Origin: an uncultured Candidatus Saccharibacteria bacterium
Lineage (GTDB): Bacteria > Patescibacteriota > Minisyncoccia > Minisyncoccales > Staskawiczbacteraceae
Reading direction: 5' to 3'
Assembly: GCA_964479955.1 (NCBI GenBank)
Contig: CAYZNK010000003.1
Location: forward strand, 66,329-130,328
DNA: 64,000 nucleotides
The notes under the pieces are model-generated. The model was not told the DNA's origin. It made no database searches and worked only from the letters and a program-made list of their open reading frames with translations. The position numbers and the translations under genes were made by a program. This document shows, in pieces, positions 19,101 through 60,164 of this stretch. Within the stretch, counting starts at the first letter, position 1; each line of letters opens with the position of its first letter.

Positions 19101-19120
19101 ATTTTAATTTATCAAAATCT

Positions 19121-28570: not shown

Positions 28571-28614
28571 AAAATGTCGGAAAATTTCACGGCCGTGAAA
28601 TTTTCCGACATTTT
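28571..28614. repeat. 44-nt perfect palindrome
   Basis: AAAATGTCGGAAAATTTCACGG|CCGTGAAATTTTCCGACATTTT. The 36-nt core is identical to 42102-42137 inside uvrC. Confidence 0.9.
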
Positions 28615-31032: not shown

Positions 31033-31191
31033 ATGCCAGGTAGTGAAAATTCGACAGTTCGTCATAATTTTCAAAGTTTGAAAATTATGACGAATAAAAG
31101 AAATCGCCATCTTGGCACAAGAAAATCAAGATAAAATATAATTATCCAGCAGAAAATCGATTTTTAAAGTCGAATTTCTACTACCTGGCAT
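31033..31191. repeat. ~160-bp TIR-bounded cassette ending at the recA start codon (copy 1)
   Basis: The 23-nt terminal inverted repeats are ATGCCAGGTAGTGAAAATTCGAC (31033-31055) and GTCGAATTTCTACTACCTGGCAT (31169-31191), matching at 21/23. A 37-nt perfect internal palindrome lies at 31058-31094. Positions 31112-31192 are 79/81 identical to 57484-57564. Confidence 0.8.
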
Positions 31192-41553: not shown

Positions 41554-42996
41554 TTATTTTAATAGATTCTCTTTTCTTATTTTTTTATGAAAAGCAATTG
41601 CAAATCTGTGGGCCTCGTCATCAAGATACAAAATAAGGTTATAAACTTCTCTTGGCAAAGTTTTCAATAAAATTGGCTTTTTTTTGCCTTCCACAAATAA
41701 CTCTTTGTTTCTTTTTGCAATTGAAATTGCTTTAATATCTTTGGTTTTTGGTTTTTGGTCTTTGGTTTTTATTGCTATATTCAATTGGGCTTTTCCGCCG
41801 TCAATTAAAATAACCTGCGGATATTCCCATTCTTTGTGCGCAAATCTTCTTTGTAAAACTTCTCTTAGCATTGCAATGTCGTTTGGCTTTCCTGAAATTT
41901 TTATTTTGAATTTTCTGTATTTTGACTTGTCCGGTTTTCCTGCAGTAAAAACAGCCATTGAACCTGTTGCAAAATTTCCCTGGATATTTGAAACGTCATA
42001 GCATTCAATTCTGTTGATGTTTTTAATTCCCAAAATCCCAGCCAAAATTTCCCTTCCGCCTGGGGAAGGAAAGAATATTGCGGGGGATTGTTTTAATTTT
42101 TTGTCGGAAAATTTCACGGCCGTGAAATTTTCCGACAAATTTGACAAATTTGAATCTTTTTTTATTGTGATGTCCGACTCTTCTCTTGCTATGTCCGACT
42201 TTTCTCTTGCGAGGTCCGACCTCGCAAGAAATTCTTGGTTTATAACAGAGCTGTGGGACATTATGTTTTGCAAAGCGTAAATTTTATCCCTAACTTTTCC
42301 GGCTTCTTCAAATCTGCTGGCTTTTGACAGGGTTTGCATTTCTTTTCTCAAAGACTTTAAAACAGACTTGCTTTTTCCTCTTAAAACCAAAACCAGTTTT
42401 TTTATGTTGTTTTTATATTCGTAAAGCTTGCTTTGTGTCCTGAGAGTAGTCGAAGGGCTTAACAATTCCCCGTAAGGCCCTGGGCATAAATCCAGGTGGC
42501 ACCATGTGCATTTTAATTTTGAGTGGGTTTTGTTGGTGTAATATGGAAATACCTTGCGTAAAAATCTTATTGTTTTTTTAAGGGATGCCCCCTCAACAAA
42601 CGGGCCTATATATTGCGCGTTTTTTGTTTCCGTTGGCTGATGAGTGATAAAAACATAAGGAATTTTATTTTTATTTTCAATGATTGCGATATAAAAATAA
42701 TTTTTGTCGTCCCTCCAGACAATATTGAATTTTGGCTGGTATTTTTTTATTAAGTTTGCCTCTAAAATTAACGCTTCAATTTCTGACTTTGTTTCAATAA
42801 ACCCAATTTTGTTTACTTTGCTTACAAAAAATTTGTCTTTGTAAGATGGCTGGAAAAAATGATTTTTGACGCGGTTTTTAATGTTTATTGCCTTGCCAAT
42901 GTATAAAAGCTCTTTTTTGTTGTAGAAAAAATAAACTCCGCTGGTTTTTGGGAGGCTTTCAAAAGTTTTTTCTTTGATAAATCTTATTTTTTCCAT
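41554..42996 (-). CDS. uvrC: excinuclease ABC subunit C (short form with in-frame repeat insertion)
   Basis: It has a GIY-YIG N-terminus (GVYFFYNKKELLYIGKAINIKNRV), a UVR-like helix and an endonuclease domain (RIECYDVSNIQG). I see no C-terminal (HhH)2 domain. The linker contains palindromic DNA repeats at 42100-42230. Confidence 0.85.
   Translation of the reverse strand: MEKIRFIKEKTFESLPKTSGVYFFYNKKELLYIGKAINIKNRVKNHFFQPSYKDKFFVSKVNKIGFIETKSEIEALILEANLIKKYQPKFNIVWRDDKNYFYIAIIENKNKIPYVFITHQPTETKNAQYIGPFVEGASLKKTIRFLRKVFPYYTNKTHSKLKCTWCHLDLCPGPYGELLSPSTTLRTQSKLYEYKNNIKKLVLVLRGKSKSVLKSLRKEMQTLSKASRFEEAGKVRDKIYALQNIMSHSSVINQEFLARSDLAREKSDIAREESDITIKKDSNLSNLSENFTAVKFSDKKLKQSPAIFFPSPGGREILAGILGIKNINRIECYDVSNIQGNFATGSMAVFTAGKPDKSKYRKFKIKISGKPNDIAMLREVLQRRFAHKEWEYPQVILIDGGKAQLNIAIKTKDQKPKTKDIKAISIAKRNKELFVEGKKKPILLKTLPREVYNLILYLDDEAHRFAIAFHKKIRKENLLK
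42100..42139. repeat. 40-nt perfect palindrome inside uvrC
   Basis: TTTGTCGGAAAATTTCACGG|CCGTGAAATTTTCCGACAAA. Its core is identical to the intergenic palindrome at 28571-28614. It translates as SENFTAVKFSD on both strands. Confidence 0.9.
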
Positions 42997-43473: not shown

Positions 43474-43542
43474 AACATACCTTGAATTGCAAAATAAACT
43501 AAAAATGAATAAAAATTTTATATCGCTGCGCTAAAATTATAT

Positions 43543-46410
43543 ATGCAACAAAATGAATATATAAAAATAAAAGGGGCCAGGGTGCACAATCTTAAAAATA
43601 TAGATGTGGAAATCCCCAAAAACAAACTGGTGGTTATAACTGGGCTTTCGGGCTCCGGAAAGTCATCATTGGCTTTTGATACTTTGTATGCAGAAGGCCA
43701 AAGAAGATATGTTGAGTCTTTGTCAGCTTATGCCAGGCAGTTTTTGGGTGTAATGGATAAGCCGGATGTTGATAAAATAGACGGAATTTCTCCGGCAATT
43801 TCAATTGACCAAAGAAAATCAACCCACAACCCAAGGTCAACAGTTGGGACAACCACGGAAATATACGATTACCTTAGGCTTTTGTTTGCAAGAATAGGAA
43901 AGCCGCATTGTCCTATCTGCGGAAAATTAATTTGGCGCCAGACAATTGACCAGATTGTTGAGCAAGCAATGAGAATCAAAAAAGATTCTGAATTTATGGT
44001 TTTGGGGCCTGTGATACGCTCTAAAAAGGGAGAGCATAGGGCGGTCTTGGAGGAAATTCAGAGAAACGGTTTTGTCAGGGCAAGGATTGACGGCTCAATC
44101 CATATGATTGATGAATTTTTGGAAAATTTTGCAGACAGTTTAGACAAGCAAAAAAAGCATAATATTGAGGTTGTTGTTGACAGATTGGTTTTAAACAAAG
44201 ATTTGGACCGTTCCAGATTAGTTGATTCTTTGGAAACAGCATTGAAGCTTGGCAAAGGTATTGTAATAATAAGCGTTAAAAAAAACAAAGACGAATTAGA
44301 AGATTTGGTTTTCAGCGAGCATTTTGCGTGCGAAGAATGTTCTGTTTCTTTGCCAGAACTTGAGCCAAGGCTTTTTTCTTTTAACAATCCTTACGGGGCA
44401 TGCCCCGAGTGCACCGGGCTTGGGGAAAAATTGGAGGTTGACCCAGAGCTTGTAATTCCAAATAAAAATTTGACGCTTGCAGAAGGCGCAATTTGGCCGT
44501 GGTCTAGAGCTTCTCACAAAGTTGGCAGACAGGGATATTATTATTCAAAGCTTTTGGAATTATCGGAAAAATATAATTTTTCGCTGGATGAAGAGGTAAA
44601 AAATCTTCCGCAAAAAATTATTGACATTATTTTATACGGAGATAAAACAGGAGGCTTTGAGGGAGTTGTTTCAAATTTGGAAAGAAGATACCACGAAACA
44701 GACTCTGATTGGACACGCCAGGAAATTGAGCAGTACATGGTTATAAAAATTTGTCCCAAGTGCCATGGCAAGAGGTTAAGGCAGGAAATTTTGGCTGTCA
44801 CAATAGGAGATGATGCGCGTAAAAATTCAAGCGCCAAAGGAACTTCAATAGATGAAATTTCTGAAATGCCCGTTGATAAAGTAAAAGATTTTTTTAAAAA
44901 TTTATCAGAAAGGTTGAGTCCTGCTGATTTAAAAGTCAGCCATTTGATAATAAAAGAAATTGTTGACAGGATTCAGTTTTTAAATGATGTTGGGTTAGGA
45001 TACTTAACTTTGGCAAGGAAAGCAGGAACATTGTCCGGGGGAGAAGAACAAAGAATAAGGCTTGCAACCCAGATAGGCTCAAAACTTTCCGGAGTTTTAT
45101 ATATTTTAGACGAGCCCTCGGTTGGCTTGCATGCAAGAGACCAACACAAACTTATTGATACATTAATAAGGCTTAAAGAACTGGGCAACAGCGTGGTTGT
45201 TGTGGAACACGACCCCCAGACAATGCAGGCAGCCGACTGGATTATTGATATTGGCCCAGGGGCCGGAAAACATGGCGGAAAAGTTATTTTTCAGGGAACA
45301 TATAAACAGCTTTTAAAATCTGACAGTTTAACCGGAAAATATTTATCAGGAAGGTTATCTATAAAATCCCAAAACCAATCCGCTAGCCGGCGGACCAAAA
45401 ACCAAACCCCAAAAAATAAAGAGCAAAAGTTTTTGCAGGTAAAAGGAGCAAGAGAGCACAATTTAAAAGATATTGATGTTAAAATTCCTTTGGAAAGATT
45501 TGTGTGCGTAAGCGGAGTTTCCGGTTCTGGAAAATCTTCTTTGATAAATGACATTTTGGCAAAAGCTTTGCTTAAAAAGTTTTATAGGGCAAAGGAAGAG
45601 CCGGGATTGCACAAAGAAATTTTGGGAATTGAAAATATAAACAAGGTGGTTTTAGTTGACCAGTCGCCAATTGGCAGAACTCCAAGGTCAAATCCGGCAA
45701 CTTATACGGGAGCATTTTCCCATATAAGGGAAATTTTTTCAAAAACAAAAGAAGCCCGCATCAGGGGATATTCTGCGGGCAGATTTAGTTTTAATGTAAA
45801 AGGCGGAAGGTGCGAGGCTTGCGAAGGCCAGGGCCAGAAAAAAGTTGAAATGTACTTTTTGCCCGATATTTATGTTGAATGTGAAGAATGCCACAGAAAA
45901 AGATATAACAAAGAAGTTTTGGAGATAGATTACAAGGGCAAAAACATTGCAGACATATTGTCTATGACAATTGAAGAGGCTTTGGAATTTTTTAAAAATA
46001 TTCCGGGCCTTTATGAAAAATTAAAGACGCTTAAAGATGTTGGGTTGTCCTATCTTGAGTTGGGACAATCAGCCACTTCGTTGTCGGGAGGCGAGGCGCA
46101 AAGAATAAAATTAGCATCAGAACTTTCAAGAAAAGGTACTGGCAGGACATTATATATTTTAGACGAGCCTACAACTGGTCTTCATTTTGATGACATTAAA
46201 AAATTGGTTTCTGTTTTAAGAAGCCTTGTTGATAAACAAAATACCGTTTTAGTTATTGAGCATAACACGGATTTTATAGGGTCTGCTGATTATATAATTG
46301 ACTTGGGTCCTGAAGGCGGAGACAAGGGCGGACAAATTATTGCAGAAGGTTCTCCAAAAGAGATTTCACAAAACAAAAACAGTTATACCGGAAAATATCT
46401 GAAAAAATAA
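43543..46410 (+). CDS. uvrA: excinuclease ABC subunit A
   Basis: It has two ABC ATPase halves (GLSGSGKSS and GVSGSGKSS; LSGGEEQR and LSGGEAQR) and Zn modules ([22 protein letters not shown]...CEECH). Confidence 0.97.
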
Positions 46411-46424
46411 TTATTCTGCAGGTG

Positions 46425-46452
46425 TTGACAATGCGTATTTTTTGAATAGAAT
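46425..46452 (+). promoter_or_regulatory. sigma70-like promoter candidate for groES-groEL
   Basis: TTGACA lies at 46425-46430, followed by a 16-nt spacer and TAGAAT at 46447-46452. Confidence 0.55.
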
Positions 46453-46463
46453 AAAATATCAAC

Positions 46464-46547
46464 GGAATCCCCAAATCCCGAAATCCAAATCCCAATTAAG
46501 TTCTAATCAAATTTTGTTGGGCATTGGGCTTTGGTCATTGGGATTTT
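46464..46547. repeat. class B low-complexity hairpin element (AAATCCCAA arm / TTGGGATTT arm), copy 1, in the groES 5' UTR
   Basis: The left arm GGAATCCCCAAATCCCGAAATCCAAATCCCAA is imperfectly complementary to the right arm TTGGGCATTGGGCTTTGGTCATTGGGATTTT. Confidence 0.65.
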
Positions 46548-46556
46548 ATAAAAATT

Positions 46557-46850
46557 ATGCAAATAAAACCAATTAGGGATCATATTTTAATAGAACCTAT
46601 TAAAGAAGAAGAAAAAACAAAGGCGGGAATTTTTTTGCCCGACACTGTTTCAAAAGAAAAGTCCGAGCAGGGAAAAGTAATTGCAATAGGACAGGGAAAA
46701 AAGACTGACGACGGAAAGATAATTCCACTTTCAATAAAGCCAGGAGACACTGTTTTGTTTTCAAAATACGGACCTACTGAAATAAAAGTTGACGGAAAAG
46801 AATATTTGATAGCAACAGAATCAGATATACTCGCTATTATTGAAAATTAA
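46557..46850 (+). CDS. groES: co-chaperonin GroES
   Basis: MQIKPIRDHILIEP..EEKTKAGIFLPDT is classic GroES. The start is moved to the ATG at 46557. Confidence 0.93.
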   Translation: MQIKPIRDHILIEPIKEEEKTKAGIFLPDTVSKEKSEQGKVIAIGQGKKTDDGKIIPLSIKPGDTVLFSKYGPTEIKVDGKEYLIATESDILAIIEN

Positions 46851-46960
46851 ACCAAAAAACAAAAACCAAAAAGCAAAACCACAAACCAAAAAACAAAAAG
46901 ATGTTTAGTCTAGTCTTTTCTATAATAATATTTTTGGTTTTTGGTATTTAGTTTTTGGTC
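46850..46960. repeat. class C low-complexity hairpin element, copy 2, between groES and groEL
   Basis: An A/C-rich arm is complementary to a T/G-rich arm (TTTTTGGTTTTTGGTATTTAGTTTTTGGTC). Positions 46860-46892 are identical to 19015-19047. Confidence 0.7.
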
Positions 46961-46963
46961 TAA

Positions 46964-48604
<1,641 letters not shown>

Positions 48605-48743: not shown

Positions 48744-51131
48744 ATGTTCATAGAAAATTTGCAAAACAAAATTAAAAATTTTTTACAAAAAGAAATTGTG
48801 TTTTTCAAAAAAGGGGATTTTATCTTTTCTGTCAAACCTCTTCCGGCTTTGCAGGGAATTTTACTGGTTTCGGTTTTTTTGTTTCTTTTTATTTTTACCC
48901 ACATTCCTCCTGGTCCAGAGAAAATAAACCAGTCTCTGGTTATTTCTGAATTTGCAACAAAAACCCGCGCTGTTGCCGGAAAAACTTCAGAACACATTGT
49001 TTTAATCAAAAAAAGCGAAATTACAAAAAATAATTATTATTTAAAACTTCCAAAAACAGCTGAAAATATTAAAATATCAAGCGTTTCATCCCAGACAGCA
49101 AAAATAGCTTTGCAGGATTACAGTACAACCCCTTTGGTTTTGCCCGAAGAAAGAAAAGTTTTTGCAAAAAAAGAGAAAAGTTCCATATTTGCAGGGATTT
49201 CCAGTTTATTTTCTCAAAGCATGGCTGACTTAAGCGAAGCCGTTTTGGATATTATGGAAAATTCAGATAACAGCCAAATAAATGTTCCAATAACAGAACA
49301 GGAAGATTCTATTTATGTTGACTTGTCCTCTGAATCAGAGGAAACTGTCCAACCAGAAGAGTTGACACAAGAAACATCCGTTGCCGAAACGCCAGCACAA
49401 GAGCCTGTTGATGAAGCAACAGCTGAAATACCTGCTGATGAGGTTTTAACAGACAAAGAACAACATAAAGCCAGCAAAACCGAGCAGGAATTAAATAAGG
49501 CAGACAAAGAAAAACAAACTAAAGAAAAAACATCCAAACAGGACCAGGAATCTGACTTGCCATCTGAATCACAGGAAACTGTCCAGCCAGAAGAGCCAGC
49601 AGAAGAACCGCCCGCCATTGAACCGCCCGCAGAAGAACTGCCCGTTGATGAACCGCCCGCAGAAACACCAACAGAGGAAACTCCATCAGATAGCCCGGAA
49701 ACAGAATTAACAGAAGCCGTGCCAGAAGAGCAAAAAACAGTTGACAGCGGAGTTTCTGAACAAGAATATGTTCAGATAACCTATGAAACTCCTGCTCCGG
49801 AAATAACAGAGCAAGAAACAGACACAGGAAAACTCATAACCGTTTTGGCAGACGATGAAGGTTTGCCAGAGCCCATATCAAATGTTGTTGCATATACTGC
49901 AATCCCTGAAATCTACAAAGTTGGCCAGGAATCCAAAATAAAGCTTAAATGGAAAAACCAGGGCGACCAGGAAGTTGAATTTCACGCCTATGACACAGAC
50001 AACAACGGAAAGCTTGATTATGTTGAGTGGACAATCCCGCATTTGTCAGAACAGATTTTTGAAATCATCTTCATTTCCAAAGCCTTCAGGTTAGATGAAA
50101 ACAAGGAAATCACAGAAGATATTTACGAATATGTTCAGGCAAAAGACAGCAACTGGGTCACATTAAACAGCAAAGAATATATCAGAGTAACTTTTGAGCA
50201 AATCTTAGACAATACAAAAGACATAACCGTTTACGCAAAGCCAACAGGAGAATCAGCAGGGACAATACAGGTTTATGAGCAGGGAACAGACACGCTAATA
50301 GTTGAGTTTCCTGCAATAAACGCAGAAAACACATACAAAGTTTTGCTGACAAACCTGCAAAACCCGTCAGATGTTTTTGACCTTAAAATCACAGGCAATA
50401 TTGATTTTGATTATATTGTTGACCCTACGGTAAGCGACAGTTTTAGTGATGAAACAAAAATCGGGGCAGGCACAACTTATGTCCAGCTTAGTAGCGGAGT
50501 ATTAATTCAACCTTGTTATGTTCCAAATCCATCATGGACAAAAATTGCAGACACTTTGGTAAGGGATATTGCCGGAGCATACAACTCCACAATAGCAAAA
50601 GATATTTACTGCGATGACAGCAACTGCATTTTGTGGACAGACGGGGCAGAAGCCCCAGGCACAGTCTGCATTGCAACAGACGCAAATGTTTACGCAAATA
50701 TTTTGTGGTCAAAAACAGATGTGTCAGGAACACAAACATGGTCAGACACAAATTTTGACTTGTACGGGGGTGACATAGGCGGGACACATTCCACAATAGG
50801 GGTTGGAAATGGAAATACTGCTGTTGGAACAAAAAATTGGCTTGAAAGATATTACAGCAATTCTGCTTCCGGAACTTTCAACGCAATGGATGCCTGTAAG
50901 GCAAAAGGAATTGGCTGGAGACTGCCAACAATTGTGGAATTAGACAGCATAAGGGACCAGGCAAAAGGAAGCTCGCCATATTCCAGGTTGCCTAATATTG
51001 TTGCGATCGGCTATTGGTCGTCTTCCGAGTATTCCACGACTAACGCCTACAGCTTGTACTTCGGCAGTGGCAATGTGCTCAACCTCGCTAAGTCTAGCAG
51101 CTACTACGTGCGCTGCGTCCGAGGGTATTAA
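48744..51131 (+). CDS. DGR target (variable) protein: N-terminally anchored surface protein with C-terminal DUF1566/C-type-lectin-fold-like variable domain
   Basis: It has an N-terminal TM segment and an acidic P/E-rich repeat region. The C-terminus GWRLPTIVELDSI...YWSSSEY...YYVRCVRGY contains the VR. Confidence 0.85.
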   Translation: MFIENLQNKIKNFLQKEIVFFKKGDFIFSVKPLPALQGILLVSVFLFLFIFTHIPPGPEKINQSLVISEFATKTRAVAGKTSEHIVLIKKSEITKNNYYLKLPKTAENIKISSVSSQTAKIALQDYSTTPLVLPEERKVFAKKEKSSIFAGISSLFSQSMADLSEAVLDIMENSDNSQINVPITEQEDSIYVDLSSESEETVQPEELTQETSVAETPAQEPVDEATAEIPADEVLTDKEQHKASKTEQELNKADKEKQTKEKTSKQDQESDLPSESQETVQPEEPAEEPPAIEPPAEELPVDEPPAETPTEETPSDSPETELTEAVPEEQKTVDSGVSEQEYVQITYETPAPEITEQETDTGKLITVLADDEGLPEPISNVVAYTAIPEIYKVGQESKIKLKWKNQGDQEVEFHAYDTDNNGKLDYVEWTIPHLSEQIFEIIFISKAFRLDENKEITEDIYEYVQAKDSNWVTLNSKEYIRVTFEQILDNTKDITVYAKPTGESAGTIQVYEQGTDTLIVEFPAINAENTYKVLLTNLQNPSDVFDLKITGNIDFDYIVDPTVSDSFSDETKIGAGTTYVQLSSGVLIQPCYVPNPSWTKIADTLVRDIAGAYNSTIAKDIYCDDSNCILWTDGAEAPGTVCIATDANVYANILWSKTDVSGTQTWSDTNFDLYGGDIGGTHSTIGVGNGNTAVGTKNWLERYYSNSASGTFNAMDACKAKGIGWRLPTIVELDSIRDQAKGSSPYSRLPNIVAIGYWSSSEYSTTNAYSLYFGSGNVLNLAKSSSYYVRCVRGY
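50997..51125 (+). repeat. DGR variable repeat (VR)
   Basis: It aligns gap-free with 51356-51484 over 129 nt. All 15 mismatches are at positions where the TR has A. Confidence 0.9.
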
Positions 51132-51355
51132 TTCAATTAAATTTTCAATATGTAAAGATAATTTAAAATTTGGAATTTCACGCGCCGCCCGATTCTTACA
51201 AAGCTCGCCACGTATTGGCATAAAGCTTGTAAAGAGAGTGCGCAAGAATATTAAATACGACTCCTGTCGCGCATAGGAACAAGTCATGCGCATCGATTGT
51301 CAGAAAGTTTCTTTTAAATTTAAACTTTCGGAGAAATGATTCGTGCGGGAGAAAA

Positions 51356-51484
51356 ATTGTTGCGAACAACTATTGGTCGTCTTCCGAGAATTCCACGACT
51401 AACGCCTACAACTTGAACTTCAACAATGGCAATGTGAACAACAACGCTAAGTCTAACAGCAACTACGTGCGCTGCGTCCGAGGG
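51356..51484 (+). repeat. DGR template repeat (TR)
   Basis: This noncoding copy is rich in AAC/AAT triplets. It is identical to the VR except at 15 adenines. The 3' 23 nt are GC-rich and invariant (IMH-like). Confidence 0.9.
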
Positions 51485-51530
51485 CACTTAATATTCAGCC
51501 AAAATTTTTTGCGGCGTAAAAATTTAAAAA

Positions 51531-51893
51531 ATGTATAACTTAGAACATCTTCCAATTTATTTAAAAATTTACCGGTTTATAAAATTTTTATATGAAGTAG
51601 TCAAAAATTTTCCAAAGCAATATAAATACACATTAGGAGAAGATATTTTAAAAATTGCATGGGAATGTCTGGATGAAGCCATAGAAGCCAACTCTTTGCC
51701 GAACGATAAGAAGTTTCTAAAAATTCAGGCTTTAAGTGTAAGTTTTGATAAACTAAAAATAAGAATGAGAATGGCCCATGAAATAGAAGCGATATCTTTG
51801 GGTCAGTTCTCACACATGAATGTTTTTTATACAAAAGAAATCGGAGAAATGGTCGGAGGATGGCTTGCGTGGGCAAAATCTTATAAATTATGA
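51531..51893 (+). CDS. avd: DGR accessory variability determinant (Avd-like four-helix-bundle protein)
   Basis: The 120-aa ORF is predicted helical. It lies between the TR and the RT, and its stop overlaps the RT start (ATGA at 51890-51893). Confidence 0.8.
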   Translation: MYNLEHLPIYLKIYRFIKFLYEVVKNFPKQYKYTLGEDILKIAWECLDEAIEANSLPNDKKFLKIQALSVSFDKLKIRMRMAHEIEAISLGQFSHMNVFYTKEIGEMVGGWLAWAKSYKL

Positions 51894-53053
51894 GTTCTAA
51901 AATTTTTACTTTTGAAAAAATTTATAAAGCCTATCTTGATTGCCGCAAAACAAAAAGAAAGACAATCAATGCCCTTAAATTTGAATTTTGTTTTGAAAAA
52001 AATATATTCTTGCTAATGGAAGAATTAAAAAATAAAACATACAAGCCCGGTCGTTCAGTCTGTTTTGTTGTAAAAAATCCTTCACCAAGGGAAATATTTG
52101 CGGCAAATTTTAAAGACAGAGTTGTTCATCATATTTTAATAAGAGAAATTGAAAAAATAGGAGAACGAAAACTTATTTATGACACGTTTTCCTGCAGAAA
52201 AAGAAAAGGAACACATCTTGCTGTTAAGAGATTAAAAAGCTTTATAAAAAAAGCTACAGAAAACCACACAAAAGAAGCGTTTTATATACAAATGGATATC
52301 TCGGGTTTTTTTATGGCAATAGACCACAATATTTTGTATTCAATTTTTGAAAAAATAATTTTAAAGCAAAAAAAGACCCGAATATGGAAAGATGATATTT
52401 TATGGCTGGCAAAAACAATTATTTTTTCAAAACCAACTGAAAATTATCTAATTAAGGGTCAGCGTTCTTTGTTTAATATTTTGCCAAAAAGAAAATCTCT
52501 TTTTTATTCTGACAGCAATAAAGGCCTGCCTATTGGAAATTATTCTTCACAATTTTTTGCCAATCTTTATTTGAATAAATTAGACCAATTTATAAAAAGA
52601 GAGTTAAAATGCAAATATTATGCAAGATATGTTGATGATTTTATATTGATTGACAGAGATAAAAACAAACTTATTGAAGCAGAAAATAAGGTGAATAATT
52701 TTTTGAAAACAGAACTTGACATGAGCCTTAATCCGAATAAAACAAAATTGAAATCGTTAGATAGCGGAATTGAATTTTTGGGATATTTTATAAAACCCCT
52801 TTGCATTTTAACCAAACAAGGGGTGGTAAAAAGGGCAAAAGAAAAAATATACAGATTCAATCAATTGGAAAATTTAAATATTGATAAAGTTATATCCGTA
52901 TTAAATTCTTATTACGGACACTTTAACCACGCTAATACATTTAATTTAAGAAAGTCAATTTTTGAAAACTGCGTGGGGGGGGGGGGCTTAAAGGGAAAGA
53001 TTTTAGTTTCAGCAGATTATAAAAAAATAATTTTGAAAAAAATCAATGCATAA
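51890..53053 (+). CDS. DGR reverse transcriptase
   Basis: RT motifs are QMDISGFFMAIDH, LPIGNYSSQFFANLYLN, YARYVDDFILI, LNPNKTKL and IEFLGYFI. Confidence 0.9.
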   Translation: MSSKIFTFEKIYKAYLDCRKTKRKTINALKFEFCFEKNIFLLMEELKNKTYKPGRSVCFVVKNPSPREIFAANFKDRVVHHILIREIEKIGERKLIYDTFSCRKRKGTHLAVKRLKSFIKKATENHTKEAFYIQMDISGFFMAIDHNILYSIFEKIILKQKKTRIWKDDILWLAKTIIFSKPTENYLIKGQRSLFNILPKRKSLFYSDSNKGLPIGNYSSQFFANLYLNKLDQFIKRELKCKYYARYVDDFILIDRDKNKLIEAENKVNNFLKTELDMSLNPNKTKLKSLDSGIEFLGYFIKPLCILTKQGVVKRAKEKIYRFNQLENLNIDKVISVLNSYYGHFNHANTFNLRKSIFENCVGGGGLKGKILVSADYKKIILKKINA

Positions 53054-53109
53054 AAAATCAGTTAAAATTTCCTTATTTAACAATTAATTGCAGTCTTTTG
53101 TGGTAGAAT

Positions 53110-53643
53110 ATGGGCATAAAACAAAATAAAGTTAAAATATATATTGACGGAGCAAATATATTTTATACTCAAAAAAGGTTGGGTTGGTTTATTGATTGGC
53201 TAAAGATAAAAAATATTATTGAAAAGGAAAAAGAAGTTGCAGAATGGAAATATTATGTTGGCGTAAAAGACGGAGATGAAAAAATGATGGATTATATAAA
53301 ATATCTTAATAATATTGGTTTTTATACAGTAACAAAATCATTGAAAAAGATTAAAGTTATCAAAGATAAAATTTCCCCCAAAACGCAAGAAAGGGAATTT
53401 ATTTATAAGGCGAATTTTGATGTGGAAATGACAGCAGATATTTTGTTGGATAAATCCAAACTGGATGAGATTATAATTTTTAGCGGCGATAGCGATTTTA
53501 GATATTTGGTTAAAAAATTAAAGGATGCAGGGATTAAAACAATGGTTTATTCATCTAGAAAAACAATATCGTGGGAATTGAAGTTAGAAATTTCAAAAAT
53601 TGTTTATTTTGAAGATATTAAAGATGAAATATTAAGGCAATAA
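53110..53643 (+). CDS. NYN-domain (LabA/DUF88-like, PIN-related) putative ribonuclease
   Basis: Motifs are KIYIDGANIFY and IIIFSGDSDFRYLVKKLKDAGIKTMVY. It is co-oriented 57 nt downstream of the RT and is followed by a hairpin. Confidence 0.75.
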   Translation: MGIKQNKVKIYIDGANIFYTQKRLGWFIDWLKIKNIIEKEKEVAEWKYYVGVKDGDEKMMDYIKYLNNIGFYTVTKSLKKIKVIKDKISPKTQEREFIYKANFDVEMTADILLDKSKLDEIIIFSGDSDFRYLVKKLKDAGIKTMVYSSRKTISWELKLEISKIVYFEDIKDEILRQ

Positions 53644-53710: not shown

Positions 53711-56700
53711 TTGTCAACAGCAAAAACAAAAATTAAAAGTTGGTTTTCAAAGGCAATCATTGTTGTTGCGGTTTTGCTTTATGTTTTTGGAATTGCCTTA
53801 ATTTATGCTGAAACTTATTATTCTTCGGCAATTTTGGTTTCAACAAATTTATTGTCGGGATTAACAATAAACAGCGTTGATTATTTTGGATATAATTGCA
53901 GTATTCTGGCAAACACTACATTGAAGGTTCAGTTTAGCCAGGACGGGGATTCCTGGTATTCTGCAAGCCATGTTGCAGATACATGGACGGATTTGTCAGA
54001 CGGAAGCCATCTTGATTCAGGCTCCGGGGCTATAGCTTTGTCCGGGTTTGATATTGATACGCCTAATCCTGAATTTTATTACAAAATACAGCTTAGCACA
54101 TCTGATACAGCAACAACTCCCAATTTCATTTCTGTAAATTTAATTTACAATACAGGTTCTTACGCAACCGCAACAACACAAGCCGCATCCGGAGTCTTGG
54201 CGCTCACTGCCACAGGCAACGGAAATATCACAGGCGCAGGAAGCTCAACAATAACAAAAAGAGGGTTTCAGTATGGCATAAGCCAGACAGCAAATTTAAG
54301 GGAAGTTTCTGAAACAGGAACATTTGGAACAGGGGCATTCTCATTGGAGCTTACATATTTATACGCCGGAAAAACACATTATGTGAGGTCATTTGCGCAA
54401 AACTCAGAAGGAAGGGCTTACGGAGACTGGCAGGAGTTTACAGCGCTTGATAATTATTATTATTCTTCGGCTGTTGGGGTTTCCTCAAATTTATTATCAG
54501 GACAGACAGTAAACAGCATAAACGGGTTTTTTGCCACAACAAGCATTCCTTCGGGAACAGGAATTACAGCGCAATTTAGCCAGGATAATTCTTCTTGGTA
54601 TTCGGCAGGAGGAACATTGGACGGAACAACATCTTTGTCTAACGGGGAAAACCAAATTGATTTGACAGGTCTTGGATGGTCGGGAGCCAATTTTTACTAC
54701 AAGGTTGCTTTAAGCGCTGACAGCGGAAGATTGGAAACTCCTGTGTTGCAGTCTGTTTATTTAAATTACAATGTTCCGATTGAGTCTTCGGGACCTTCAG
54801 ACAGTGGCTCTTCTGCGTCAAATCCAACACTTTCGGGAAGCGATATTGATTTTTCAATAACTGCCACTGATTCAGAGTCTGATAATTATTATCTTGCAGT
54901 CTGCAAAACAAATTCAATCACAGCCAACAATGAAGCCGTCCCAACTTGCGGGGGCGGAAATTGGTGCATTTCTGACTCAACTGTTTCTGCAAGCCAGGCT
55001 TCCTGCAGTTATACAACATCTGGCACAGATGAGGGGGATAATAGTTGGTATGCTTTTGTTTGTGACCATAATGCAGAATCTGCTTGCTCTGTTGCTATGC
55101 AGGGAACAGGGGATAATGGCTCTCCTTTTTCAGTTTACATTGACTCAACAGCTCCAACCACAACAGCAGACGCAGGAAGCTATGTTTTTGGAAATTGGTC
55201 AAAGGAAAATGTTGAAGTCTCTTTGTCCTGCGATGACGGGTCGGGTTCCGGATGCGCAACTACAAAATACTGCACAGACACAGACAACACCTGCACTCCA
55301 ACCACAGATTACACAACTGCCGTCACAATTTCCACAGAAGGCACAAGCTACATCAGGTATCTTTCAACTGACAATGCAACCAACGAGGAAACAGCCAAAA
55401 GTTCAACCGTCAAGGTTGATAAGACAGCTCCAACCACAACAGCAGACGCAGGAAGCTATGTTTTTGGAGAAACATCAACATCAGCAATCACAGTCACCTT
55501 GGTCTGTTCAGATGGTTCGGGTTCCGGATGCCTGTCCACACTTTATTGTACAGACACAGACAACACCTGCACGCCTGCAACAAGCTATACAACTGCCGTC
55601 ACAATTTCCACAGAAGGCACAAGCTACATCAGGTATCTTTCAACTGACAATGCAACCAACGAGGAAACAGCCAATTCAGAAACAATTGTAATACAAACAT
55701 CAACTTCCACTCCGTCTACAGGAGGGGGGTCTATGTGGCTTCCTATTGGTCAGCAGGAAGCAGAAGACAACAATAAACAAGAGGATGATAAAAAGCCTGC
55801 TTTAGAGATTGATAAAAACATTATTTTACAGATAGGCCAACAATTAAAAGACATGGCAGATGGAGCAATGGAATTTTTCTTTGGTAAACAGCAAACTGCG
55901 GTTTCAGAAATAACTATTCCAGAAGAAACTCCCGAGGCTTTTGAGAATATAGAGATTATGGGGGAACTGCCCGCAGAAAGTTTAGAAATTTCATTTATAG
56001 GGGACAATATCAGTTTTTTCTCCGGAAAATTGCCGGATTTCTCACAGACAATGCAGGATTTAGGAATAAATGATTTAAATAATTTAAGGGAATTGGGCGG
56101 AGCAGAATTTATTTTGCCCGGAATTGCTTCTTTTGTTGGCGTAGAAGTTGGGGATGTTGAAGTTGGCTTGAATATACCTGTAGTTTCTATTGCTAATATG
56201 AACCGGGAAGAAAAGGACAAAATTCCAACAGACATTATTTTTGCAAGAACAGCAGCAGAATCAATAGAGCATAATATGGCAATTTCAGTCAGCGATTCCG
56301 GGGATGTTGAACAGAGAATTTCATTGATAGCAAGCCAAAAAGTTGAACTGATAATAAAGCCGCAAAACACAGCCAAAAGAATAACTGGAATAGTTATTTT
56401 AAAGAATAAGCCCGAAGCAAAACTAAATCCATTTTCTGACCTGTGGAGATATTTTTCGGCTGCCTTAAGCGGGTATAACACAGACGAAGAAAATTTGGAA
56501 ACATACGGTTTGCTTTTGGATAAGTTTGAATATTTTTACGAAGGTGACGGAATTTATAAAGCAGAATTTAAGGCTCCTGTAAATGAGGGAGAATATGAAA
56601 TAATAACAATTATTGAATACGAAGAAAGCAGTTTGCGTTCAAAGGGAATAAAATTAATTGCCGCAGTTGACCCTGAGGGATATATTTTTAGGAAACTTCC

Positions 56701-57094
56701 ACAGGGAGAGCTTAGGGTGAGGGATGCATTGGTGTCAATTTATTGGCTTAATTCTGAAACCGGAGAATACGAACTTTGGCCGGCTAAAAAATATTTTCAG
56801 GAAAATCCGCAGACAACCGATGATACGGGAAGATATGTTTTTTTGGTGCCAGAGGGAATATATTACCTTAAAGTTGAAGCTAAAGGATACCACACTTATG
56901 AGGGCAGTCCGTTTTCAGTGGTCAAAGATATCGGTGTGCACAAAAATATTGAATTAAAAAAGAAGGCGGAGTGGAAAGAGTGGCTTGATTGGAAAATTTG
57001 GATAATAATAATTCTGGGCATTGTTATTGCTTTAATTGTTTATAAATACATTAAAAATTTAATTTCAAAAAATGGAACAGAAAAAAATATTTAA
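53711..57094 (+). CDS. very large surface protein with internal repeats and C-terminal TM anchor
   Basis: The start is TTG. It has an N-terminal hydrophobic segment, two ~110-aa related modules (SSA..VS.NLLSG.T.NS...QFSQD..SWYSA) and two tandem 92-aa Cys-containing modules. It also has a CarboxypepD_reg-like segment (GRYVFLVPEGIYYLKVEAKGY) and a C-terminal TM helix. Confidence 0.7.
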   Translation: MSTAKTKIKSWFSKAIIVVAVLLYVFGIALIYAETYYSSAILVSTNLLSGLTINSVDYFGYNCSILANTTLKVQFSQDGDSWYSASHVADTWTDLSDGSHLDSGSGAIALSGFDIDTPNPEFYYKIQLSTSDTATTPNFISVNLIYNTGSYATATTQAASGVLALTATGNGNITGAGSSTITKRGFQYGISQTANLREVSETGTFGTGAFSLELTYLYAGKTHYVRSFAQNSEGRAYGDWQEFTALDNYYYSSAVGVSSNLLSGQTVNSINGFFATTSIPSGTGITAQFSQDNSSWYSAGGTLDGTTSLSNGENQIDLTGLGWSGANFYYKVALSADSGRLETPVLQSVYLNYNVPIESSGPSDSGSSASNPTLSGSDIDFSITATDSESDNYYLAVCKTNSITANNEAVPTCGGGNWCISDSTVSASQASCSYTTSGTDEGDNSWYAFVCDHNAESACSVAMQGTGDNGSPFSVYIDSTAPTTTADAGSYVFGNWSKENVEVSLSCDDGSGSGCATTKYCTDTDNTCTPTTDYTTAVTISTEGTSYIRYLSTDNATNEETAKSSTVKVDKTAPTTTADAGSYVFGETSTSAITVTLVCSDGSGSGCLSTLYCTDTDNTCTPATSYTTAVTISTEGTSYIRYLSTDNATNEETANSETIVIQTSTSTPSTGGGSMWLPIGQQEAEDNNKQEDDKKPALEIDKNIILQIGQQLKDMADGAMEFFFGKQQTAVSEITIPEETPEAFENIEIMGELPAESLEISFIGDNISFFSGKLPDFSQTMQDLGINDLNNLRELGGAEFILPGIASFVGVEVGDVEVGLNIPVVSIANMNREEKDKIPTDIIFARTAAESIEHNMAISVSDSGDVEQRISLIASQKVELIIKPQNTAKRITGIVILKNKPEAKLNPFSDLWRYFSAALSGYNTDEENLETYGLLLDKFEYFYEGDGIYKAEFKAPVNEGEYEIITIIEYEESSLRSKGIKLIAAVDPEGYIFRKLPQGELRVRDALVSIYWLNSETGEYELWPAKKYFQENPQTTDDTGRYVFLVPEGIYYLKVEAKGYHTYEGSPFSVVKDIGVHKNIELKKKAEWKEWLDWKIWIIIILGIVIALIVYKYIKNLISKNGTEKNI
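55148..55699 (+). repeat. tandem 276-nt (92-codon) intragenic repeat x2
   Basis: ACAGCTCCAACCACAACAGCAGACGCAGGAAGCTATGTTTTTGGA starts at 55148 and again at 55424. A long identical stretch, ACAACTGCCGTCACAATTTCCACAGAAGGCACAAGCTACATCAGG...GAAACAGCCAA, is present in both units. Confidence 0.85.
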
Positions 57095-57440: not shown

Positions 57441-57563
57441 TATAGTGGAAATTAGACAGCGTTCTATCAGAAAATTATCACTTTTGGCACAAGAAAATCA
57501 AAATAAAATATAATTATCCAGCAGAAAATCGATTTTTAAAGTCGAATTTCTACTACCTGGTAT
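57441..57563. repeat. TIR-bounded cassette, copy 2 (shorter, degenerate left end)
   Basis: Positions 57484-57564 are 79/81 identical to 31112-31192 and end at the start codon of the next gene. The left end, TAGTGGAAATTAGACAG, resembles 31041-31057. Confidence 0.75.
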
Positions 57564-58092
57564 GAATTGCCCAAACGATAACGAAGAATTAGAAAAAATT
57601 TTATTCCACAACGTGGAGGTTGATTTTTGCCCTTTGTGTCTGGGAATGTGGTTTGATGACGATGAATTGAGATTGGCGAAAGACAACAAAGATAAAAATT
57701 TGAATTGGGTGGATGTTGACTTATGGAGAGACAGGGGAAGGTTTGAGGTTTTAAAAATAAGCAAGCATTGCCCTGTTTGCAGGGTGGGATTGCAGGAAAT
57801 AAAATATGACGGGTCAAAAACAAAAGTTGATTTTTGCAAAAAATGCAGAGGCGTTTGGCTGGATAGGGGAGAATTCAAGCAAATAATAAATTATTTGAAA
57901 AATAAGTCAGATTACGGAATTCTGCATAATTATACAGAAAATTTATTATCAGAATTATGGGAAGTTTTTTCGGGACCAGAAACTTTTAGGAGTGAATTGG
58001 CGGATTTTCTAACTCTTTTGAAACTATTAAATTACAAGTTTGTTGTTCAGCATCCGCACATAAACGAGCTGATTGATAAACTGCCAAAATAA
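57562..58092 (+). CDS. double zinc-ribbon protein (TFIIB-type zf domain x2)
   Basis: CPNDNEEL...VDFCPLCLGMWFDDDEL and CPVCRVGL...VDFCKKCRGVWLDRGEF match the zf-TFIIB-like pattern C..C...C..C.G.W.D..E. Confidence 0.6.
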   Translation: MNCPNDNEELEKILFHNVEVDFCPLCLGMWFDDDELRLAKDNKDKNLNWVDVDLWRDRGRFEVLKISKHCPVCRVGLQEIKYDGSKTKVDFCKKCRGVWLDRGEFKQIINYLKNKSDYGILHNYTENLLSELWEVFSGPETFRSELADFLTLLKLLNYKFVVQHPHINELIDKLPK

Positions 58093-58096
58093 TTAT

Positions 58097-58228
58097 AAAA
58101 TCCCAAATCCCAAAATCCAAATCCCAACCAAATCCTAATTCCGCCATCCAGCGGACTAAATCCCAAAACGTTTTGGGATTTGATACTTAGAGTTTTGTTG
58201 GTCATTGGGGATTGGTCATTGGGGATTT
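58097..58228. repeat. class B low-complexity hairpin element, copy 2, with nested small hairpins
   Basis: The left arm is AAAATCCCAAATCCCAAAATCCAAATCCCAACC and the right arm is TTGGTCATTGGGGATTGGTCATTGGGGATTT. Nested inside are TCCGC-CATCCA-GCGGA (58140-58156) and the perfect palindrome AAATCCCAAAACGTTTTGGGATTT (58158-58181). Confidence 0.7.
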
Positions 58229-58238
58229 CAAAAGAATC

Positions 58239-58793
58239 ATGACTACACTTTTTTATATCATATTGGCAATAATAGCAGCCGTTGCCTTTTGGCTAGTTCT
58301 TGTTTTTAATGGCTTTGTTGTTTTAAAAAACAGGGCAAAGGAGGCTTTATCTGATATTGATGTGCAGTTAAAAAGAAGGTACGACTTAATTCCAAACCTT
58401 GTTGAAACAGTAAAAGGATATGCAACGCACGAAAAAGAGATTTTTGAAAAAGTTACATTGGCAAGGGCTTCTGCAATGTCGGCCCAAGGAATGAAAAACA
58501 GGGCAGTTGCCGAAAACCAATTGTCTGAAACCTTAAAAAGTCTGTTTGCTGTTGCAGAAAATTATCCTGATTTAAAAGCTTCGCATAATTTTTTGGAGTT
58601 GCAAAGAGAAATTACTGATACGGAAGACAAAATTCAGGCCGCCCGCAGGTTTTATAACACAAATGCAAGGGATTTGAACATAAAAGTTGAAAGTTTTCCG
58701 GATAATATTATTGCGAAGTCTTTTGGATTTTCTCAAATGGAATTGTTTGAGGCAGATGCAAATGAAAAACAGCCTGTCAATGTAAAGTTCTAA
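58239..58793 (+). CDS. lemA: LemA family protein
   Basis: It has an N-terminal TM helix and the motifs DVQLKRRYDLIPNLVETVKGYA..E and ENYPDLKA...F..LQ.E...TE..I...R..YN. The start is moved to 58239. Confidence 0.85.
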   Translation: MTTLFYIILAIIAAVAFWLVLVFNGFVVLKNRAKEALSDIDVQLKRRYDLIPNLVETVKGYATHEKEIFEKVTLARASAMSAQGMKNRAVAENQLSETLKSLFAVAENYPDLKASHNFLELQREITDTEDKIQAARRFYNTNARDLNIKVESFPDNIIAKSFGFSQMELFEADANEKQPVNVKF

Positions 58794-58848
58794 TCGTTCA
58801 AGTTGTTCTAATCGTTCAAGTCGTTCAAGTTGTTCAAAGCGTTATGCG
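58794..58848. repeat. class D repeat, left arm (CGTTCAAGTTGTTC-type units) upstream of the four-helix-bundle gene
   Basis: TCGTTCAAGTTGTTCTAATCGTTCAAGTCGTTCAAGTTGTTCAAAGCGTT is imperfectly complementary to 59211-59256, largely once G:U pairs are allowed. Confidence 0.65.
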
Positions 58849-58851
58849 AAA

Positions 58852-59205
58852 ATGCAATTTAATTTTGAAAAATTAGAAGTTTGGCAATTAGGGATGCAGG
58901 TTGTTAATAGTGTTTATTCTATTGTCAAAAAATTTCCAGCAAGCGAAAGATTTGAATTAACGTCTCAAATCAAAAGAGCAGCGGTTTCAATAGTATTAAA
59001 TATTGCTGAAGGAAGCGGAAGAAAAACAAAAAAAGATTTTTGTCATTTTATCAGAATTGCAATAGGGTCTAGTCTAGAGGTGGTCACTTGTATAAAGATA
59101 GCGTTGCGGGAAAATTTTATTTCAAAACAAGAATCCGAAGAGATAATTGGTTCTATAGAAAAGATATATTTTAAATTAGTGGCCCTTGAAAAATCAATAA
59201 ACTAA
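58852..59205 (+). CDS. four-helix-bundle protein (23S rRNA intervening-sequence protein / Avd-like family)
   Basis: The motifs FEKLEVWQ......V..I...FP..ERF.L.SQI.RAA.SI..NIAEG.GR....DF..F...A.GS..E are characteristic of this family. Confidence 0.8.
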   Translation: MQFNFEKLEVWQLGMQVVNSVYSIVKKFPASERFELTSQIKRAAVSIVLNIAEGSGRKTKKDFCHFIRIAIGSSLEVVTCIKIALRENFISKQESEEIIGSIEKIYFKLVALEKSIN

Positions 59206-59210
59206 CTTTT

Positions 59211-59256
59211 AGGGAATCGTTTTGAACAAATTAAACATTTAGAACGGTTTGAACAT
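59211..59256. repeat. class D repeat, right arm downstream of the four-helix-bundle gene
   Basis: The reverse complement of AGGGAATCGTTTTGAACAAATTAAACATTTAGAACGGTTTGAACAT aligns to the left arm. Confidence 0.65.
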
Positions 59257-59261: not shown

Positions 59262-60164
59262 ATGCCAAGCATATATACGCAAGCAGATTCAAACACAAGA
59301 AAAACCTGGTTTTTATTAACTGGGTTTTTGGTCTTCATCATAGTAATAGGCTGGCTTTTCAGCTATATTTTAGACGATACTGCCATTTTATACATTGCAA
59401 TAATTTTCAGCATTTTTTCTTCTTTTGGAAGTTATTGGTGGTCAGATAAAATTGTTTTATCAATGTATAGGGCAAAGCCAGTAGAGCATAATGATAATCC
59501 GGAACTTTATCATATTGTTGAAAATCTTTGCATTACAGCAGGTCTTCCTGTTCCAAAGATTTATATTCTGCCCGAGCTTCAGCCAAATGCTTTCGCAACA
59601 GGCAGAGACGCAAAGCACGCTGTTATTGCTGTTACCCAGGGGCTTTTAAACAAACTTAACAAAACAGAGCTTCAGGGGGTTATTGCCCATGAATTATCGC
59701 ATATAGGAAATAGAGATATGCTTTTGGCAACAGTTGTGGCCATTTTGGCAGGCGTTATTGCAATGCTGGCAAACTTTTTTATGAGAATCAGTTTTTGGGG
59801 AGGCAGAAGAAATTCAGATGACAACAAAGGAGCAAATGCTTTGATTTTGGTTTTAGGGGTTGTTGCAGCACTTTTGGCTCCAATAGCAGCTAGTTTAATA
59901 CAGCTTGCAATTTCAAGAAAAAGAGAATTTTTAGCAGATGCGGATGGAGCGCTTTTAACAAGATACCCGGAAGGACTGGCGTCTGCTTTAGAAAAAATTT
60001 CATCTGACCCAACCTCAATGAGAGTTAAAAATGATGCAGCAAGCTCTTTGTTTATTGATTCCCCATACAAGGGTAAGCAAAAAACGAGTTGGTTTGTAAA
60101 ACTTTTTTTAACTCATCCTCCTGTTGAAGAGCGTATTTCCGCTCTTCGCGATATGAGTATGTAA
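59262..60164 (+). CDS. htpX: zinc metalloprotease HtpX (M48 family)
   Basis: It has the HELSHI zinc motif, TM helices and the C-terminal THPPVEERI. Confidence 0.9.
   Translation: MPSIYTQADSNTRKTWFLLTGFLVFIIVIGWLFSYILDDTAILYIAIIFSIFSSFGSYWWSDKIVLSMYRAKPVEHNDNPELYHIVENLCITAGLPVPKIYILPELQPNAFATGRDAKHAVIAVTQGLLNKLNKTELQGVIAHELSHIGNRDMLLATVVAILAGVIAMLANFFMRISFWGGRRNSDDNKGANALILVLGVVAALLAPIAASLIQLAISRKREFLADADGALLTRYPEGLASALEKISSDPTSMRVKNDAASSLFIDSPYKGKQKTSWFVKLFLTHPPVEERISALRDMSM

Follow-up and report, generated by a model that had tools for sequence, protein, structure and literature searches.

Intervening sequences (IVSs) of 23S rRNA genes that carry an open reading frame (ORF) for an S23p or IVS protein (IVP), as in Coxiella burnetii, Leptospira and Xanthomonas (PMC4990558), hold a gene of the four-helix-bundle family PF05635 in a loop of ~400-600 nt closed by complementary arms, and their distribution is patchy. 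In Coxiella, three to four tandem GACAGAT heptamers, whose copy number varies among strains, stand just before the S23p ATG, and the IVS is excised by RNase III, with a site at the first repeat (PMC4990558). Here we analyzed a stretch of 64,000 nt (the window) from an uncultured Candidatus Saccharibacteria bacterium (assembly GCA_964479955.1, contig CAYZNK010000003.1, positions 66,329 to 130,328), in which a gene of the same protein family is located between lemA and htpX and is bracketed by inverted arrays of a 9-nt unit. The gene with its two arms is referred to as the cassette and the gene product as IVP. We judge it slightly better than an even bet that the feature is an IVS-type cassette in an mRNA operon, with an IVP gene between inverted short-tandem-repeat arrays in place of an rRNA helix. 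The cassette has the complementary closing arms of an rRNA IVS and is located not in an rRNA helix but between two protein-coding operon genes, with a unit of 9 nt. The window IVP is under strong purifying selection, in contrast to the Coxiella ORF, a decaying frame that is probably not translated; excision by RNase III has been demonstrated in Coxiella, among others, and is putative in the window cassette.

Two other described systems resemble parts of the locus. Sequences of the short tandemly repeated repetitive (STRR) type are heptamer hairpins of unknown function in filamentous and heterocystous cyanobacteria, found in the hupS|hupL spacer (PMC2670836) and, according to Vioque (1997) as cited in PMC4046671, in RNase P RNA. 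Like the geneless hairpins of the window described below, they consist of tandem 7-nt units placed in spacers of co-transcribed genes or extending stable-RNA helices; however, they have been described as gene-free and only from cyanobacteria, whereas the window cassette encloses a gene and its host is a Staskawiczbacteria-like member of the Patescibacteria. No link between STRR sequences and IVP genes was found in the literature searched. The second system is the diversity-generating retroelement (DGR), whose Avd protein is a homologous pentameric four-helix bundle that binds an imperfect RNA stem encoded beside its own gene; all five protomers touch an 11-bp RNA stem-loop, which the pentamer grips with flipped-out bases in the crevices between protomers (bioRxiv 10.1101/2023.10.23.563531). 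In contrast to this single stem-loop, IVP has long tandem arrays on both sides, and the gene is adjoined by lemA and htpX, with no reverse transcriptase, template or variable repeat.

The cassette at the lemA-htpX junction

The 117-aa ORF is a clear member of the 23S rRNA IVS protein (four-helix-bundle) family. The PF05635 profile matched it with 119 bits (E 1.3e-34, cut-off 33.8) and TIGR02436 with 107 bits (cut-off 24), and it carries an RxxxSxxxNxxEG motif (residues IKRAAVSIVLNIAEGSGR) that fits the family motif given as GxxRxxxSxxxNxxE by Lin et al., as cited in PMC3936711. The nearest solved structure is the pentameric XCC0516 (PDB 2GSC, E 1e-20), and by this similarity in sequence IVP would form a homopentameric toroid. 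The original prediction, made from the letters of the window, had assigned the ORF to this family, as one homologous to DGR Avd; the assignment holds, and IVP is only distantly related to the Avd of the DGR in the window, with 19% identity (E 1e-5) in the alignment that the prediction had called for. IVP falls below the cut-offs of the Avd-specific models NF033474 (23 bits vs 80) and PF22296 (bAvd; 27 vs 40). The coordinates and sequences given in the prediction were confirmed; the parts of the locus as delimited here are listed in Table 1. An Rfam scan of the window returned two tRNAs and no rRNA, the cassette being flanked by lemA and htpX, and a PADLOC search for defense systems gave no match. 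No promoter or terminator signal above chance was found within the cassette, nor any that separates lemA, IVP and htpX. Because the arms are identical in three independent assemblies (99.4-99.6% identity), the cassette is not an assembly artifact.

The 58-nt spacer between lemA and the IVP gene consists almost wholly of six left-arm units, in the order GTTCTAATC, GTTCAAGTT, GTTCTAATC, GTTCAAGTC, GTTCAAGTT and GTTCAAAGC. These represent the types GTTCTAATC and GTTCAAGTY, with GTTCWAR-NN as the general 9-nt unit, and the last codon and stop of lemA (TTC TAA, ending at 58793) lie within the first of them. The 56-nt spacer between the IVP gene and htpX is made up mostly of four inverted units (as reverse complements, GTTCAAACC, GTTCTAAAT, GTTTAATTT and GTTCAAAAC), and the right arm stops 5 nt short of the htpX ATG. 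Within the window, the GTTCWA unit was found only in these two arms. The pairing core joins positions 58804-58841 with 59218-59255. That the flanks are inverted and more complementary than flanks of equal composition, as had been predicted, was borne out by two controls. The arm-arm duplex has an energy of -32.6 kcal/mol, compared to -15.6±3.0 for dinucleotide shuffles, of which 0 of 1000 were as good, and when the left arm was paired with random segments of the window, 0 of 3000 reached the arm-arm energy. Computed with the exact spacers, the duplex has z = -4.7. When the 491-nt region is folded, the minimum free energy structure and the centroid structure both contain the long-range arm stem, and IVP ranks first among 44 plus-strand window genes by flank inverted-repeat score.

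Table 1. Positions of the cassette, its host genes and the geneless hairpins in the window
Feature	Position	Strand	Evidence or remarks
Left arm, six tandem 9-nt units	58787-58843	+	Repeat search; Tandem Repeats Finder (TRF) period 9, 4.9 copies
IVP gene, four-helix-bundle protein, 117 aa, pI 9.2	58852-59205	+	PF05635, TIGR02436
Right arm, four inverted units	59218-59256	+	Inverted repeats I1-I4; duplex -32.6 kcal/mol
lemA, upstream host gene	58240-58793	+	PF04011, E 3e-60; ORF list
htpX, M48 protease, downstream host gene	59262-60164	+	PF01435 (Peptidase_M48), E 2e-31
Zn-ribbon gene	57562-58092	+	Most upstream gene of the four-gene stretch
Geneless hairpin, Zn-ribbon|lemA spacer	58097-58230	+	AAATCCC / ATTGGGG heptamers; fold -45.9 kcal/mol; TRF
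Geneless hairpin filling the pilB-like|pilC-like spacer	5160-5301	+	AATTATC / ATTGATA heptamers; -40.6 kcal/mol
Geneless hairpin filling the groES|groEL spacer	46849-46969	+	AAACCAA / TTTTTGG heptamers
Geneless hairpin upstream of rpoB	19004-19105		Sister of the groES|groEL hairpin
Geneless hairpin upstream of groES	46466-46546		Heptamer arms

The history of the junction was examined in relatives. An htpX scan of species-representative genomes placed the window in or near Candidatus Staskawiczbacteria. The closest relatives (L084-L103), whose HtpX proteins are 69-85% identical to that of the window, keep the order Zn-ribbon-lemA-htpX and lack the IVP gene. In ~10 of them the lemA|htpX junction measures 0-15 nt, with stop-codon calls uncertain by up to ~8 nt. 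A geneless hairpin occupies the spacer in L084 and L085 (GC-rich), L092 (CGAAATC heptamer arms), L096 and L100. The hairpins of L084 (1229-1315, -29.5 kcal/mol) and L085 (2397-2500, -37.2 kcal/mol) have similar ends, and a second hairpin family seems to occupy the junction in the nearest relatives of the window.

An IVP gene directly 5' of htpX was found in L004, L005, L006, L007, L010, L014, the group with protein P0039 (L164 and others) and the Moranbacteria-type loci L133, L139, L155 and L163. These loci are scattered over the HtpX tree (11 of its 87 loci, L010 and L014 having been added from partial htpX matches), and the order lemA-IVP-htpX is present, patchily, in ~12 lineages of Parcubacteria. 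Arrays fill both spacers in all 12 lemA-IVP-htpX loci, with GTT[CG]TA[AG]-type units in 11, and the right arm ends at the htpX ATG in all 12 orthologues; their duplex z-scores range from -1.9 to -6.8 and are -2.7 or lower in 11. Distances between IVPs and between HtpX proteins are correlated (Mantel r 0.52, p 0.003). Between the window and L004, in which IVP is 73% and HtpX 78% identical, dS is 2.6, so the unit has outlasted the saturation of synonymous sites. On account of the scattered recurrence, the correlated distances and the shared arrays in both spacers, the cassette is an old resident of the lemA|htpX junction that has been cleanly lost many times or possibly re-acquired in place, and not a recent insertion. 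The original prediction of an insertion therefore stands in so far as lemA and htpX usually lie side by side and the IVP gene is missing from the closest relatives, but the event is not recent, as the cassette recurs in deep lineages of Parcubacteria. The resemblance of the lemA end (AAGTTCTAA) to the unit makes it attractive to regard the left array as a mere duplicate of that end in the window, L004, L007, L014, L155 and L163; L164, where lemA ends differently and the unit is kept, contradicts this candidate. A second IVP gene, that of the Candidate Phyla Radiation (CPR)-type protein P0034 (L174-L183), is located between genes for an M50 (RseP-like) protease and a thioredoxin-reductase-like protein, with spacers of ~50 nt; it too thus stands beside a membrane protease gene, which may be a coincidence.

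Flanking arms across the protein family

The census of four-helix-bundle genes that the original prediction had proposed was carried out on a metagenome scan, which gave 80 loci encoding IVP relatives at 35-73% identity. For each gene, the 110-nt upstream flank was scored against the reverse complement of the downstream flank. The median score was 27 for IVP genes, 15 for 229 neighboring genes at the same loci and 14.5 for 588 mismatched pairs of flanks, and 49 of 76 IVP loci exceeded the 95th percentile of the neighboring genes (Mann-Whitney p 5e-22). The duplex-energy z-score was below -2 in 54% of the census loci and below -3 in 32%. On inspection, the arms were short tandem repeats at nearly all loci; the best left-arm period was 7 or 14 in about two-thirds of them, 9 in the CPR group and 8 in a few. 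Strong periodicity (self-match of at least 0.6) was limited to ~40% of the arms, compared to 0% of ORF control segments. The cassettes are 390-610 bp long, similar to the 428 nt of the Coxiella 23S IVS, and fall into groups with the units GTTCTAA / GTTCAAG, TATGGC, GTTCACC, GACCGGG / GGAGACG, CTACAGT, GGTTCAT and TTAGTTA. The repeat unit follows the protein clade and not the insertion site, with 66% identity within groups and 41% between them. The cassette architecture is thus typical of the sampled PF05635 family, and we have high confidence that the window gene belongs to this family-wide type. The view of the window locus as an IVS-like cassette in an mRNA context was largely right, and the arrangement is more general than had been supposed.

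In a tblastn search of plasmids, 21 records, all but one of them cyanobacterial, contained IVP genes; nine were inspected. Six of the nine have inverted tandem-unit arrays: Nostoc punctiforme pNPUN01 (GGGTGTR) and pNPUN02 (AGTCAGG), Anabaena sp. 90 pANA02 (GGTGACA), Picosynechococcus PCC 7003 (GGAGATAA), Nostoc ATCC 53789 and Geminocystis (GGGAAAA). Inverted arms are absent at two, and the arrays are direct at one, in Pseudanabaena. In this last case (L191, Pseudanabaena galeata pPg_01, 46268-46627), IVP is encoded between cas6 and cas4, with 15 copies of AAAAGCT upstream and 10 copies of AAAAGCC downstream; the more fundamental trait may be the tandem array, with inversion as its common arrangement. 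Several of the plasmid genes are inside cas operons, such as ANA_RS23230 of pANA02 (cas6|IVP|cas4) and AWQ21_RS15215 of Picosynechococcus PCC 7003 (cmr2|IVP|cmr3), which agrees with a previous account (PMC3936711) of such genes at cas loci.

Members of one unit group encode IVPs that are 60-90% identical, and most pairs are found in non-homologous flanking contexts. When the GTTCACC group (four contexts) and the TATGGC group were aligned, the limits of homology were sharp and coincided with the outer arm ends; in these two groups the cassettes are discrete units. Copies in the GTTCACC group agree at 35-37 of 37 positions of the left arm while their synonymous sites differ by 31-37%; the arm sequence itself, and not just its complementarity, is thus constrained or homogenized. 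The protein is under strong purifying selection, with dN/dS of 0.03-0.15 for orthologues and dispersed copies alike and of 0.07 for the window IVP and its L004 orthologue; the pair L041/L061 (0.79) was ignored as a probable start or frame misassignment. IVP genes are oriented like their neighbors in 113 of 134 cases, above the neighbor-neighbor baseline of 72% (p 0.0014), the arms usually abut the flanking genes, and the cassettes fill the intergenic spacer. An Rfam scan of 20 loci identified L045 as a genuine 23S helix-45 IVS, with heptamer-like arms (CATCCGA / CATCTGA) of the same build as other cassettes, and placed the cassette of L023 (1547-3521) inside a tRNA gene cluster; no rRNA was detected at the other 18. 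Besides this helix-45 IVS and the tRNA cluster, the settings sampled include housekeeping operons and the cas operons of cyanobacterial plasmids. The window itself holds one copy of the cassette, and the related copies in other contexts come from different metagenome contigs. With moderate confidence, we regard the cassettes as mobile now or formerly.

Readings of the cassette

If the window feature is an IVS-type cassette, lemA, IVP and htpX would be co-transcribed, and the arms of the transcript would pair in a duplex of ~35 bp (-33 kcal/mol) that loops out the IVP ORF. The stem would bring the lemA stop beside the htpX start, restoring the tight junction of 0-15 nt seen in cassette-free relatives, so that the insert would be nearly silent for the host. 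By the precedent of the Coxiella 23S IVS, such a duplex is a plausible substrate of RNase III. By analogy with the DGR Avd pentamer, an IVP pentamer might bind its own periodic stem or repeat array, and such binding would maintain, regulate or spread the cassette. The chances that the stem is processed as RNA appear about even, and those of arm binding by IVP lower. It is the rRNA precedents, the co-orientation with host genes and the juxtaposition of the upstream stop and downstream start at the base of the stem that lead us to propose a stem in RNA.

Several results weigh against the IVS-type reading. Mismatches in the arms had been predicted to be of the kind that becomes G:U pairs in RNA, as a sign of selection on RNA pairing, but this claim failed. 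Over 47 loci, 53 transition mismatches are G:U-compatible and 49 are A:C (p 0.77), with transversions (174) dominating, and the window arms alone have three and two, respectively. The sense duplex is the more stable in 26 of these loci and the antisense duplex in 21 (p 0.48). A strand-specific RNA signature is thus absent, making the arms equally compatible with a role at the DNA level. Taken as a whole, the 491-nt region has an ordinary fold energy (z -0.64), which leaves the arm-arm test as the informative one. Moreover, much of the complementarity is due to the fact that both arms contain the conserved unit core, so that selection may act on motif arrays rather than on pairing. About one-third of family members have no clear inverted arms, including one with direct arrays. 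Signs of recent transposition were likewise not found: the exact proteins P0039 and P0034 occur on many contigs, each in one context only, and across 45 loci, at which arm ends are hard to define, there was no excess of target-site duplications (observed 3.58, null 3.38).

The strongest alternative, which we consider unlikely, is that the cassette is a non-autonomous DNA transposon, such as a mobile insertion cassette or miniature inverted-repeat transposable element (MITE) with a passenger gene, in which the arrays are terminal inverted repeats with multiple sites for a transposase acting in trans and RNA pairing is incidental. Mobile insertion cassettes and MITEs are likewise 0.4-0.6 kb long, bounded by inverted repeats, free of a transposase and dispersed. 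Mu and Tn7 are examples of transposons whose ends each carry several binding sites, and this explanation would account for the sharp homology limits at the arm tips, the same arms in different contexts, the greater conservation of arms than of synonymous sites and the lack of both G:U and strand bias. Direct repeats of 7-8 bp flank two of the four elements of one subgroup (AAACTAAG in L032 and AACAATC in L018). However, the ends of the IVP cassette are tandem arrays with no consistent target duplication, and the overall duplication signal is missing, as noted above. No transposase is consistently nearby, and the change of unit between IVP clades would require many matching transposases. Identical IVP proteins are confined to single contexts, co-orientation with host genes is enriched, rRNA-borne members are handled at the RNA level, and the passenger is always of the PF05635 family and under purifying selection.

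Somewhat less probable still is that the stem is a feature of the host, a spacer-filling structure resembling STRR sequences that serves mRNA processing, stability, translational coupling or heat-responsive control of htpX, with the IVP gene having landed in or been captured by its loop. Five or more geneless hairpins built in the same way are located between co-directional genes of the window, including groES|groEL, and five relatives (L084, L085, L092, L096 and L100) have a hairpin alone in the lemA|htpX spacer. Roles of STRR sequences in transcript stability or translational coupling have been proposed (PMC2670836), and the arrest of the right arm at the htpX ATG in 12 of 12 orthologues would fit such a role. 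Against a host feature, within the window the GTTCWA unit is restricted to the flanks of IVP, the hairpin-only relatives have unrelated sequences at the junction, the arms in other groups accompany the gene into unrelated contexts, and the unit correlates with the IVP clade (66% vs 41%, as above).

It is very improbable that IVP acts as a second or spare Avd for the DGR located 5.8 kb upstream, with the flanking repeats forming part of that retroelement. The window does contain a complete-looking DGR at 48744-53053 (target gene with an Lcl_C domain, bAvd and a reverse transcriptase at 51890-53053; with the NYN-domain gene that follows, the region is 48744-53643), and IVP and the DGR Avd are distant homologues. 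Yet this DGR already has its own Avd, IVP scores below both Avd cut-offs, and the lemA-IVP-htpX synteny is conserved in ~12 loci. Where gene calls are listed for these loci, they include no reverse transcriptase; elsewhere, tblastn with four window proteins returned only these proteins as neighbors. Chance pairing of low-complexity AT-rich flanks, to which a genome of 36% GC and repetitive arms that inflate the possible pairings would lend themselves, is refuted by the shuffle and segment controls and by conservation of the feature in 11 of 12 orthologues and across phyla.

Beyond the IVS-type reading itself, a broader and distinctly speculative proposal, to which we assign a low probability, is that IVP cassettes are the autonomous form of an unrecognized class of hairpin elements. 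The pentamer would recognize its own 7-9-nt units and drive or safeguard the spread of gene-bearing and geneless hairpins with the same unit, including STRR-like hairpins and ORF-less IVSs. Spread could proceed through an RNA intermediate, perhaps with a reverse transcriptase as for Avd, or through a hairpin-DNA intermediate, without a recognizable transposase.

The literature on IVS proteins, four-helix-bundle proteins, Avd and STRR sequences, as far as it was covered, yielded no earlier account of stand-alone IVP genes with inverted tandem-repeat arms; its coverage was incomplete, so that a prior description is possible. What appears to be new here is an IVS element outside rRNA and inverted tandem-repeat arms as a trait of the family. 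The S23/IVS four-helix-bundle proteins are among the commonest uncharacterized small proteins of bacteria and are encoded not only in rRNA genes and cas operons but at many further loci; for about thirty years, neither the rRNA IVS ORFs nor the cyanobacterial STRR hairpins have found an explanation. If IVP genes are generally packaged with clade-specific inverted arrays, these three puzzles (IVP genes, rRNA IVS ORFs and STRR sequences) are perhaps one phenomenon. The cassettes probably explain the apparent association of IVP genes with CRISPR (clustered regularly interspaced short palindromic repeats) loci, and in annotation they can split operons or disguise them. Culturable carriers exist in Nostoc punctiforme, with NPUN_RS34290 of pNPUN01, Anabaena sp. 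90 and Picosynechococcus PCC 7003.

Geneless hairpins and other features of the window

The original prediction had proposed that the long hairpins of the window form one family with the cassette. The likeness in build was confirmed, as the geneless hairpins (Table 1) also consist of tandem units that fill spacers, but a shared origin was not, as their units differ from those of the cassette and their loops, 18-40 nt long, show no trace of a gene. The units AAATCCC, AAACCAA and AATTATC are used at none of 183 IVP loci. With tandem 7-nt arms in an operon spacer, the window hairpins are of the STRR type, of which the IVP arms are a 9-nt variant.

Geneless structures with the unit of a nearby cassette were found elsewhere. 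In L028 (4300-4370) and L044 (4698-4770), a TATGGC hairpin with four units per arm and a 14-nt loop is located 1.3 kb upstream of the cassette with the same unit. On pANA02 (L193), the AGGTGAC heptamer array of the IVP cassette is also present in the next spacer (cas4|cas1), and a 9-mer array of 4.4 copies of TTCATCCTG stands between the reverse transcriptase and avd genes of a DGR; arrays on this plasmid are at 43494-43523, 44157-44186 and 10137-10176. Because these same-unit structures adjoin IVP cassettes, a partnership of the kind formed by repetitive extragenic palindromes (REPs) and RAYT is possible. In a REPtron, a RAYT gene is located between inverted REPs and geneless REP hairpins are dispersed, and bracketing by short repeats and geneless structures of the same unit are shared with the IVP cassettes of L028, L044 and pANA02. 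Unlike RAYT, IVP is a 117-aa helical bundle that matches PF05635 only and has no HUH/Y1 domain, and the geneless hairpins of the window have units other than that of its cassette.

The avd gene of the window DGR (51531-51893) is flanked by an AT-rich 29-nt inverted repeat (51502-51530 / 51895-51923) that is 76% complementary; with a flank score ranking fourth of 44 window genes, this case is borderline and may be due to chance. A perfect palindrome of 34 bp (GTCGGAAAATTTCACGG|CCGTGAAATTTTCCGAC) is present at both 28576-28609 and 42103-42136, where none is expected by chance, and extends to 46 bp at the first site and 40 bp at the second; a dispersed palindromic element and an operator are two possible explanations. 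Beside its second copy there is a 21-nt tandem repeat (42165-42220). The ftsK|recA spacer (31033-31191) contains a strong non-repetitive hairpin (-61.9 kcal/mol) with 23-nt arms of 91% identity and an inner stem of 18 bp, and the recA ATG lies within its right arm. Lastly, an ORF for a surface-protein-like product of 1127 aa (53711-57094) includes a 276-bp tandem duplication at 55148-55674 (1.9 copies, 82% identical).

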